Positions 58,829 to 60,200 of a DNA stretch of 64,000 bases are shown here, one piece after another; positions within the stretch are counted from its first letter, which is position 1, and each line of letters opens with the position of its first letter. Source of the DNA: Candidatus Borrarchaeum weybense (GTDB taxonomy: Archaea > Asgardarchaeota > Sifarchaeia > Borrarchaeales > Borrarchaeaceae); the NCBI GenBank assembly GCA_019057385.1, contig JAHQJS010000004.1, positions 32,001 through 96,000 of the forward strand, given 5' to 3'. The translations under genes were made by a program, and so were the position numbers. The notes beneath the pieces were generated by a model, which had not been told where the DNA came from, did not search any database, and saw only the letters and a list, made by a program, of their open reading frames with translations.

Positions 58829-59058
58829 TAGATTTTCAATTGTCTCTCGAAATGAGATTTTTCGCTGATTTGATTGGAAATATATGTCTTTTTCAAATTA
58901 TCGTTCAATTTTAGTCTAGCAGTTACGTGTATATTCCAGACTTTAAAACTTTATAATGTAGAAAAAACATATGTCAGGTAGTTCAAAAAATAGTTCTGCA
59001 CAATCCTTTAGTACTAAGTTCTTCTTATAGTATATTTTATGTTGTACAATGCACAAAA

Positions 59059-59631
59059 TTGTGCTCTCTTTGGGTGAACAGATTGAAATTATTTGAACTT
59101 GCAAAGCATGCAATTGAAATTATAAAGTCCGCAGGAGAAGAAGGCATCATCAATCTTGCATTAGCTAAAGAATTAGACATGGCTAGACGTCGAATTTATG
59201 ATATTATCGCGATCTTGAAAGCCGCAAAATTAGTTAAAACAACACGTGAGAAAAAAGGCACCATGGTTACTTGGATTGGTTCTTCTTCAGATTTACCTAA
59301 AATTGCACCATTATCTCAGACATCTTTTATTTCTGAAGAACCAAATGAATTGATTAATGATCCTTATTCCTTCAAACAAACTTCAGAGTTTCATAATGCG
59401 AATGCAGTTCTATCAAAATCCTTAAATTATCCCTTAAATAGAGTCATGATCGATTCTCCTTGCCTTAAAATACGTACGACTTCAAAGATCACACGAATTA
59501 AGCCAATAGGCATTATGGAATTACTTGTTGAATGCGAAGAAGATGATAGTCCAGGATTTATTATCGAAGCGCCCCAAGATGAGAATCGCAAAGTAAAAGA
59601 AGCAGAACGTGCACTTGTAGATGTGCGCTAG
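59059..59631 (+). CDS. E2F/DP-like winged-helix DNA-binding protein
   Basis: LAKELDMARRRIYDIIAILKAAKLV...VTWIG matches the RRxYD...W.G signature of E2F/DP. Confidence 0.75.
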   Translation: MCSLWVNRLKLFELAKHAIEIIKSAGEEGIINLALAKELDMARRRIYDIIAILKAAKLVKTTREKKGTMVTWIGSSSDLPKIAPLSQTSFISEEPNELINDPYSFKQTSEFHNANAVLSKSLNYPLNRVMIDSPCLKIRTTSKITRIKPIGIMELLVECEEDDSPGFIIEAPQDENRKVKEAERALVDVR

Positions 59632-59822: not shown

Positions 59823-60200
59823 TTACTCTTTTTTCCTGATTGTAATATCCGTCCTACCAGTTTTGACATCCTTAAAATAGTCTAATCCCTCTAATATCTT
59901 GCCTACAATGTTTACCGGACTATATGGCTCAATCTTATCATAATAGACACATATACTTTTTCCTAAGGGCCAATAAGCAATGTCGCCCTTATCAATTTCT
60001 TTTGTTGATTTCTCTAATCCTATTGTGCCAGGTATTCGAATAGCTGTCTGTGCATTTTTGTATACAGATGCTTTTTCTGTGTGAGGAAGAATGTCTAATA
60101 TCGCTGCGTAAGTAAGAGGTGCCTTAATACGATGTAATTCACCGATAGCAGAGTTCTCTCCAATTTCAAAAACTATTTGCACCTTTGAAATCTCGCTCAT
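59823..60200 (-). CDS. Cyclophilin-like fold protein (DUF369/TM1367-like)
   Basis: AP.T, GDIAYWP.G..ICVYY, SPVN.VG. Confidence 0.85.
   Translation of the reverse strand: MSEISKVQIVFEIGENSAIGELHRIKAPLTYAAILDILPHTEKASVYKNAQTAIRIPGTIGLEKSTKEIDKGDIAYWPLGKSICVYYDKIEPYSPVNIVGKILEGLDYFKDVKTGRTDITIRKKE

Follow-up and report, generated by a model that had tools for sequence, protein, structure and literature searches.

An E2F/DP-type winged-helix protein of Candidatus Borrarchaeum weybense, its conserved C-terminal beta domain, and its place in an archaeal family

The DNA considered here, called the window in what follows, is a stretch of 64,000 nucleotides of contig JAHQJS010000004.1 (positions 32,001 to 96,000) from the Asgard archaeon Candidatus Borrarchaeum weybense. 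On its forward strand lies a gene for a protein of 185 amino acids (aa), which is in all probability a member of the catalogued Asgard E2F/DP-type family and would serve as a single-copy DNA-binding regulator, acting as a homodimer or as a monomer. That Asgard archaea possess an E2F/DP homologue is settled and published, and the window adds another copy. Beyond the published accounts consulted lie the body plan of the family (winged helix, zipper and beta domain), which bears a weak but convergent likeness to the eukaryotic pairing module, the predicted loss of the zipper in the lineage of the window, and the single-copy state. The gene and the parts of its product are listed below, with residues numbered throughout on the 185-aa form that begins at GTG 59074.

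59059..59631, plus strand: open reading frame (ORF) as called mechanically, 190 aa, TTG start.
59074..59631 including the stop codon, plus strand: E2F/DP-type gene, 185 aa from GTG 59074, matching Pfam PF02319.
59074..59283, plus strand: DNA-binding domain of the winged-helix type, residues 1-70, with three helices and a wing of two strands in the AlphaFold2 (AF2) model.
59188..59202, plus strand: RRIYD motif (R39 R40 I41 Y42 D43) at the start of the recognition helix, read from the sequence.
59287..59424, plus strand: Ser/Asn/Pro-rich linker, residues 72-117, predicted to be disordered, with no secondary structure and a predicted local distance difference test (pLDDT) score below 50.
59425..59568, plus strand: small conserved beta domain, four strands within residues 132-165, pLDDT 80-89.
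59581..59625, plus strand: C-terminal helix, residues 170-184, in the AF2 model.

Judged by its sequence, the N-terminal part of 70 residues is an E2F_TDP winged helix. An earlier note on this DNA, written from the letters of the sequence, had proposed an E2F/DP-like winged helix here and named a profile search against PF02319 as a check; that search scores 33.2 bits, above the curated cut-off of 25.7 (E 4.3e-8), over profile positions 8-65 of 65. A six-frame search of the genome with the same profile reached 35.3 bits, and matches were found in 0 of 14 control genomes. The AF2 model places helices at residues 6-20, 27-34 and 38-50 and strands at 54-59 and 62-67, with pLDDT of about 90, which gives the three helices and beta hairpin of a winged helix with a Trp in its last strand. 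Across an alignment of 43 family members, G24, R39, R40, Y42, D43 and W67 are invariant, a set that takes in both the RRxYD motif of the recognition helix and the closing Trp of the wing, the two marks on which the earlier reading had relied. HMMER aligns the RRIYD of the window protein with the RRIYD of E2F4 and E2F8 and with the RRVYD of DP2. When a profile built from the 43 members was compared with all PDB sequences, it matched E2F8 (4yo2; E 3.5e-13, 53.3 bits, in two stretches), E2F4 (1cf7_A; E 6.5e-8) and DP2 (1cf7_B; E 6.5e-3), and besides these three nothing appeared at E below 0.1, even though the sequences searched include MarR, TrmB and ArsR chains by the hundred. For the window protein, no NCBIfam family came near its cut-off. 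A phmmer pass over 1.84 billion representatives returned 34 proteins at E <=0.001; the PF02319 cut-off is passed by 32 of the 33 representatives other than the window protein. One candidate, P0045, was rejected as a member; it is a repeat protein matched through low complexity and fails that cut-off.

The same profile results bear on an ordinary archaeal regulator of the TrmB/MarR kind, whose RRxYD motif and E2F_TDP score would stem from convergence or from a shared helix-turn-helix (HTH) clan. Regulators of this kind have the same overall fold, and the best structural matches of the model are indeed MarR, ArsR and similar domains; moreover, one source names the close homologue P0006 a 'sugar-specific transcriptional regulator TrmB', and 19 of the 33 representatives show weak TrmB (PF01978) matches at E <=0.01, all under the cut-off except that of P0042 (26.7 bits against 25.6). 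For the window protein, by contrast, TrmB is not listed at E <=10, whereas E2F_TDP passes its curated cut-off, and wherever a representative has both matches E2F_TDP scores higher, P0042 included (40.4 bits). TrmB and MarR proteins lack the RRxYD signature, and their effector and dimerisation domains differ from those of the archaeal E2F/DP-type proteins. Against a TrmB/MarR origin also stand the PDB profile search, which returned E2F8, E2F4 and DP2 alone despite the many chains of the rival kind, and the naming of the loci: in a species-level genome collection 100 stretches encode a relative, and among the best 80 of these 100, for which names were counted, 68 lie in genomes with an Asgard-lineage name. 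We regard this origin as distinctly improbable. The earlier note had held that best profile or structural matches to generic winged helices such as TrmB would speak against an E2F/DP relationship; as it turned out, the best profile matches are to E2F/DP and not to TrmB, while the best structural ones are to generic winged helices. Foldseek and VIA-align, run with the full model, gave only such generic winged helices, with no E2F chain among the matches listed, and the fold is too common for this to be informative.

A second alternative is that the winged helix serves protein-protein contacts or belongs to a general factor, of the Rpc34, TFIIIC, TFE-like or replication-linked sort, rather than to a gene-specific transcription factor. 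Sub-threshold Pfam matches to B-block_TFIIIC (E 0.053) and RNA_pol_Rpc34 (E 0.063) point that way, as do the Rpc34 and TFIIIC domains that figure among the tied structural matches and a housekeeping neighbourhood with EF-1beta, PTH2 and an exosome/SBDS/proteasome cluster. These profile matches lie far under their cut-offs, however (14 against 22 bits and 13.1 against 28.4 bits), the invariant residues are exactly the DNA-reading motif of E2F/DP, and the neighbourhood is not conserved across the family, in which a VWA-domain gene, a CxxCxxCC gene and a cyclophilin-like gene occur as neighbours in 12, 7 and 5 of 27 loci. A role of this sort is therefore thought unlikely, and a gene-specific regulator of the E2F/DP type is preferred.

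The second half of the protein also belongs to the family. A beta domain of four strands and a helix make up its last 70 residues, and this part is conserved throughout the archaeal family. The beta domain holds the family motifs ..LKIRT..KITR.. and ..ELLVE..PGFIIE, and the single-stretch phmmer alignments of relatives extend to query residue 170. Distant relatives, 23-36% identical, are built on a three-part plan consisting of the winged helix, a heptad-rich segment of about 40 residues that draws generic coiled-coil Pfam matches, and a conserved beta segment of the form ..F....L.IR......I.RV..SG.EV.IE...PG..V.P, often followed by a short helix. A model of the tail of one of them, L013, shows a 42-residue helix (residues 7-48 of its C-terminal part, pLDDT above 90) followed by four strands and, at the end, a further helix (residues 105-115), which stands at the same place as the C-terminal helix of the window protein. 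Short forms also exist, of 117-126 aa, in which the beta segment follows directly on the winged helix; they include L002, L022 and the Heimdall- and Kari-type entries of the published table. Judging from the models, the coiled coil, or zipper, has been lost in the Sif/Borrarchaeum-type lineage, which has a disordered linker instead. The earlier note had already described a low-complexity linker and a beta-rich C-terminal part, and both are borne out by the model. It had, on the other hand, ended the protein at FIIEAP, where about 20 more residues (QDENRKVKEAERALVDVR) follow and make up the predicted helix 170-184.

In eukaryotic E2F and DP proteins, the coiled-coil/marked-box (CC-MB) module is the pairing module, and the question arises whether the archaeal tail is its counterpart. 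Three pointers bear on it. First, a Foldseek search of 350,542 PDB chains was made with the model of the coiled coil and beta part of L013, and E2F1 (2aze_B) came first (E 0.56), with 5tuv_A fourth, 5tuu_B sixth, 2aze_A ninth, 5tuv_B tenth and 5tuu_A thirtieth. These six are all the chains of three E2F-DP CC-MB entries (2aze, 5tuu and 5tuv), and the alignments run over 98-117 columns, through helix and strands. Second, in a language-model atlas queried with tails only, an E2F_CC-MB cluster ranked first for the window protein (0.76). Third, it also ranked first for L013 (0.75, two clusters), for which eight of the ten best named matches fell in one family or clan; the two tail queries are only 12% identical, and by the atlas's own calibration scores below 0.9 are leads only. 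The three pointers are weak, but they come from two kinds of method and converge on one target, named beforehand, and we lean towards taking the archaeal tail as the counterpart of the eukaryotic pairing module.

As for mechanism, the protein would be a sequence-specific DNA-binding regulator which, by analogy with E2F4-DP2, reads DNA through its RRxYD helix; the E2F4-DP2-DNA structure, described in a paper of 1999, is said to show such a reading. The genome (completeness scored at 100%, contamination at 7%) gives a single PF02319 match, and the protein used as a query likewise has a single match there at E <=10, so that neither search revealed a second family member to form an E2F-DP heterodimer. 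Given this single-copy state, the protein would work as a homodimer, or else as a monomer, with the beta domain and helix holding it together. A site with a CGCG core is the natural guess from the eukaryotic case, and a homodimer would take a symmetric one.

Several observations weigh against parts of this reading. On structure alone, hundreds of other winged helices are as close to this domain as E2F is. The window protein itself has no coiled coil after the winged helix, and its linker sits where most relatives have the coil of about 40 residues. The Foldseek matches to the CC-MB chains are non-significant (E 0.56-4.5, none <=0.001; TM scores 0.24-0.41), VIA-align of the L013 tail against CC-MB aligned only the long helix, and atlas scores of 0.75-0.76 are weak, shuffled proteins reaching 0.8 in a third of cases. 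Neither PF16421 nor PF08781 matched any of 17 C-terminal parts (the window protein and 16 relatives) at E <=10, a blank that leaves room for distant homology, as HMMER filters drop most weak matches. A genome search with PF16421 found nothing at the E2F/DP-type locus, its best match being elsewhere (E 0.32). Finally, the replication genes that one would look for in an E2F-like regulon have neither CGCG nor GCGC in their 350 nt upstream (0 of 4 orc1/cdc6 genes, 0 of 1 main mcm gene), and the same holds for the E2F-like gene.

Target sites were sought in the whole genome, which is 37% G+C; ORFs were called crudely for this (the longest, at least 80 aa), so that 'intergenic' DNA includes RNA genes and small genes. 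Among the 36 hexamers made of G and C only, GCGCGC has the largest share outside ORFs (0.45, the others ranging from 0.07 to 0.36), and its excess there relative to its pentamers (z 5.1) ranks fifth among 2080 hexamers. Of 20 alternating CG runs of at least 8 bases, 16 lie outside ORFs, a part of the genome that holds 15.6% of the bases. The cause of this placement could be a regulator's site, a DNA structure or codon avoidance. Runs of this type are also what a Zalpha-like domain would recognise, that is, a domain that responds to the shape of left-handed or unusual alternating-CG DNA and not to its base sequence, but we give very little credence to such an identity for the window protein. 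Thirty-two genes face runs of at least 7 bases; they are functionally mixed, and 12 have no Pfam match. They include NrdD, CDC48, an AAA+ protein with a winged helix, a Ras-like GTPase, two DHDPS-family paralogues and argininosuccinate synthase. Random intergenic positions lie just as close to TATA-like words (a mean of 6.2, against 6 of 63 for the runs), and the runs show no special proximity to gene starts either. The run found 38 nt before cdc48 is absent from the other four genomes of the genus. With mixed genes, no proximity to TATA-like words or starts and no replication genes, the CG runs were rejected as a regulon of the E2F/DP-type protein.

The only lead is nrdD, which encodes the anaerobic ribonucleotide reductase. 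A CGCGCGC or GCGCGCG run lies within about 35 nt upstream of its conserved TATA box, and it is present in all four same-genus genomes that have the region, with a shifted position in one. This run is at most a candidate site for the E2F/DP-type protein. Ribonucleotide reductase is a classic target of eukaryotic E2F. The upstream region of nrdD (G000:C4:25050-25366, equal to L068:1-317, outside the window) also contains a block of about 70 nt that is near-identical in four same-genus genomes and has a perfect inverted repeat, GTGTGCTA...TAGCACAC, with the alternating CG run after it. The block is a candidate operator or leader RNA.

Taken jointly, these elements lend themselves to a broader scenario, which we put forward tentatively and consider rather unlikely as a whole. 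The E2F/DP body plan of winged helix, zipper and marked-box would predate eukaryotes; a single Asgard gene would provide a homodimer bound to symmetric CGCG-type sites, the nrdD run being one; the E2F and DP pair would have come from a later duplication; and the Sif/Borrarchaeum form would be derived, having kept the beta domain and exchanged the zipper for a flexible linker. E2F/DP drives the G1/S programme of eukaryotes, and an archaeal forerunner bears on the origin of cell-cycle transcription. The zipper-less lineage of the window represents a natural variant for asking whether the beta domain alone suffices for pairing.

The archaeal proteins can be set beside several known systems. With eukaryotic E2F1-6 and DP1-2 they share the winged helix with its RRxYD motif and wing Trp, and the PF02319 cut-off is passed; the domain order of the archaeal family, winged helix followed by coiled coil and small beta domain, resembles that of a typical E2F or DP. 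The window protein differs in being of 185 aa without a transactivation or pocket-protein-binding tail, in giving no PF16421 or PF08781 signal, in the disordered linker that replaces the coiled coil in its lineage, and in the lack of an E2F plus DP pair. A search of the genome for RB_A (PF01858) gave no match, and it is uninformative, as no control genome was matched either. E2F7 and E2F8, the latter of which (4yo2) is the best PDB sequence match of the archaeal family profile, work without DP, as the archaeal protein does. They carry two winged helices per chain, whereas the archaeal protein has one and a beta domain of its own.

The family has been catalogued before. Eme et al. (2023; Nature 618:992, PMC10307638) count it among the eukaryotic signature proteins: their Supplementary Table S3 gives 151 candidate Asgard homologues under 'E2F/DP, PF02319', and their ancestral-gene table has two clusters named 'E2F/DP homolog', the larger of which is assigned to arCOG02749. 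A 2024 review of the archaeal cell cycle likewise states that Asgard genomes have E2F homologues and flags the origin of cell-cycle transcription. Among the first 30 rows of Table S3 are a Borrarchaeota entry that agrees with P0002, itself 90% identical to the window protein, and Sifarchaeia and Sifarchaeum entries in which, on a count by eye, about 11 of the 185 positions depart from the window protein. As far as these entries go, the window protein belongs to the same family and ortholog group as the Asgard homologues of Eme et al. (2023) and is another species' copy, with no substantive difference. The literature that was searched held no paper analysing the second half or the function of the archaeal E2F/DP proteins.

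The distribution of the family is largely Asgard and patchy. The closest named loci are from Ca. Borrarchaeum yapensis (94%), a Promethearchaeota metagenome-assembled genome (MAG; 89%) and Ca. Sifarchaeum marinoarchaea (76%), and the close homologues are labelled 'Promethearchaeota archaeon' by their sources. The 68 Asgard-named loci mentioned above comprise 43 from Thorarchaeota, 10 from Promethearchaeota, 4 from Heimdallarchaeota, 3 from Helarchaeota, 2 from Baldrarchaeota and one each from Odinarchaeota, Hodarchaeota, Hermodarchaeota, Asgardarchaeum, Borrarchaeum and Sifarchaeum; 11 more of the best 80 are named 'uncultured archaeon' or 'archaeon'. The one left (L089) lies on a 15-kb contig of a bacterial-labelled MAG, Candidatus Deferrimicrobium; either an Asgard contig was mis-binned there or the gene was transferred. 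Within the phylum of the window, PF02319 is matched in 139 of 400 genomes (above the cut-off in 136), and in 33 of 90 high-quality ones. Some taxonomic families have none or next to none (0 of 31, 0 of 22, 0 of 14, and 3 weak matches among 135), and in others nearly all members are positive. Most Asgard genomes with the family have one match. Some (G308, G006, G298-G300 and others) have a second, which is a short paralogue; a Sifarchaeia example from the published table has RRRISD instead of RRRIYD and no linker. A search for longer or fused forms returned none, neither among 835 candidates of a single-protein search (at E <=0.001) nor among 7999 of a search with alignment A2 (at E <=10), and this blank is weak evidence.

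Turning to the gene itself, the ORF described in the earlier note (59059..59631, plus strand) exists and its peptide GIINLALAKELDMARRRIYDIIAILKAAKLVKTTREKKGTMVTWIG agrees with the translation letter for letter. The frame stands; as its start, the N-termini of homologues favour GTG 59074 over TTG 59059. GTG 59074 is, on sequence comparison, most likely the start of the E2F/DP-type gene, because 12 close homologues (67-90% identical) begin with M/V-NRLKLFEL. The published gene call of an ortholog reads 'start_type GTG, no RBS' (RBS, ribosome-binding site). Two contigs of a wetland metatranscriptome map without mismatch at 59056-59261 and 59233-59383, at a depth of about 2, and the neighbouring genes have no contigs. 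They are a weak hint that the gene is transcribed with a short leader; this is a single metatranscriptome, in which uncovered regions are no finding, contigs cannot show the true 5' end and DNA may contaminate the RNA library. Two conserved elements lie upstream.

59023..59033, plus strand: TATA-like box TCTTATAGTAT, conserved in two same-genus genomes in an alignment of upstream regions.
58941..58977, plus strand: second block (..TAAAACTTTATAATGTAGAAAAAACATATGTCAG), conserved in three same-genus genomes, about 100-130 nt before the gene.

The TATA-like box lies about 25-30 nt ahead of the first base of the RNA contigs (59056) and would be a promoter element. The second block, which is separate from this proximal box, might serve as a further promoter or be bound by a regulator.

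The genomic surroundings of the gene were compared with those of 27 relatives' loci, three near-duplicate loci having been left out. Upstream in the window are PTH2, a small zinc-finger protein, EF-1beta and a nucleotidyl transferase. Directly downstream is a convergent gene:

59823..60200, minus strand: cyclophilin-like gene (PF04126).

Beyond it, on the other strand, follow Rrp4, SBDS and proteasome alpha. Among the relatives, the VWA-domain gene stands downstream of the family member, and the CxxCxxCC gene (PF03692) adjoins it. Neighbours are kept within clades and not across the family, and none suggests a function. The convergent pairing with a cyclophilin-like gene recurs in loci from other Asgard families (L005, L017, L026, L028 and L031), and the CxxCxxCC gene is often found upstream in loci with this pairing.

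Some minor observations were made elsewhere in the genome, outside the window. The main MCM gene (G000:C8:99415-105015) is one frame of 1867 aa in which the MCM domain is matched as three pieces set apart from one another, the pattern that inteins within the domain would give. No more than 5 kb separates a second, divergent MCM-like gene (581 aa) from a second PCNA-like gene (327 aa) in the region G000:C6:634340-638851; 'ctacttaggta..' words are repeated before both, and the region is possibly an integrated element that brought replication genes of its own. Upstream of PCNA, a spacer of 603 nt that is otherwise A+T-rich contains a G+C-rich stretch (G000:C8:18033-18380) with the look of a structured RNA gene that has escaped annotation.

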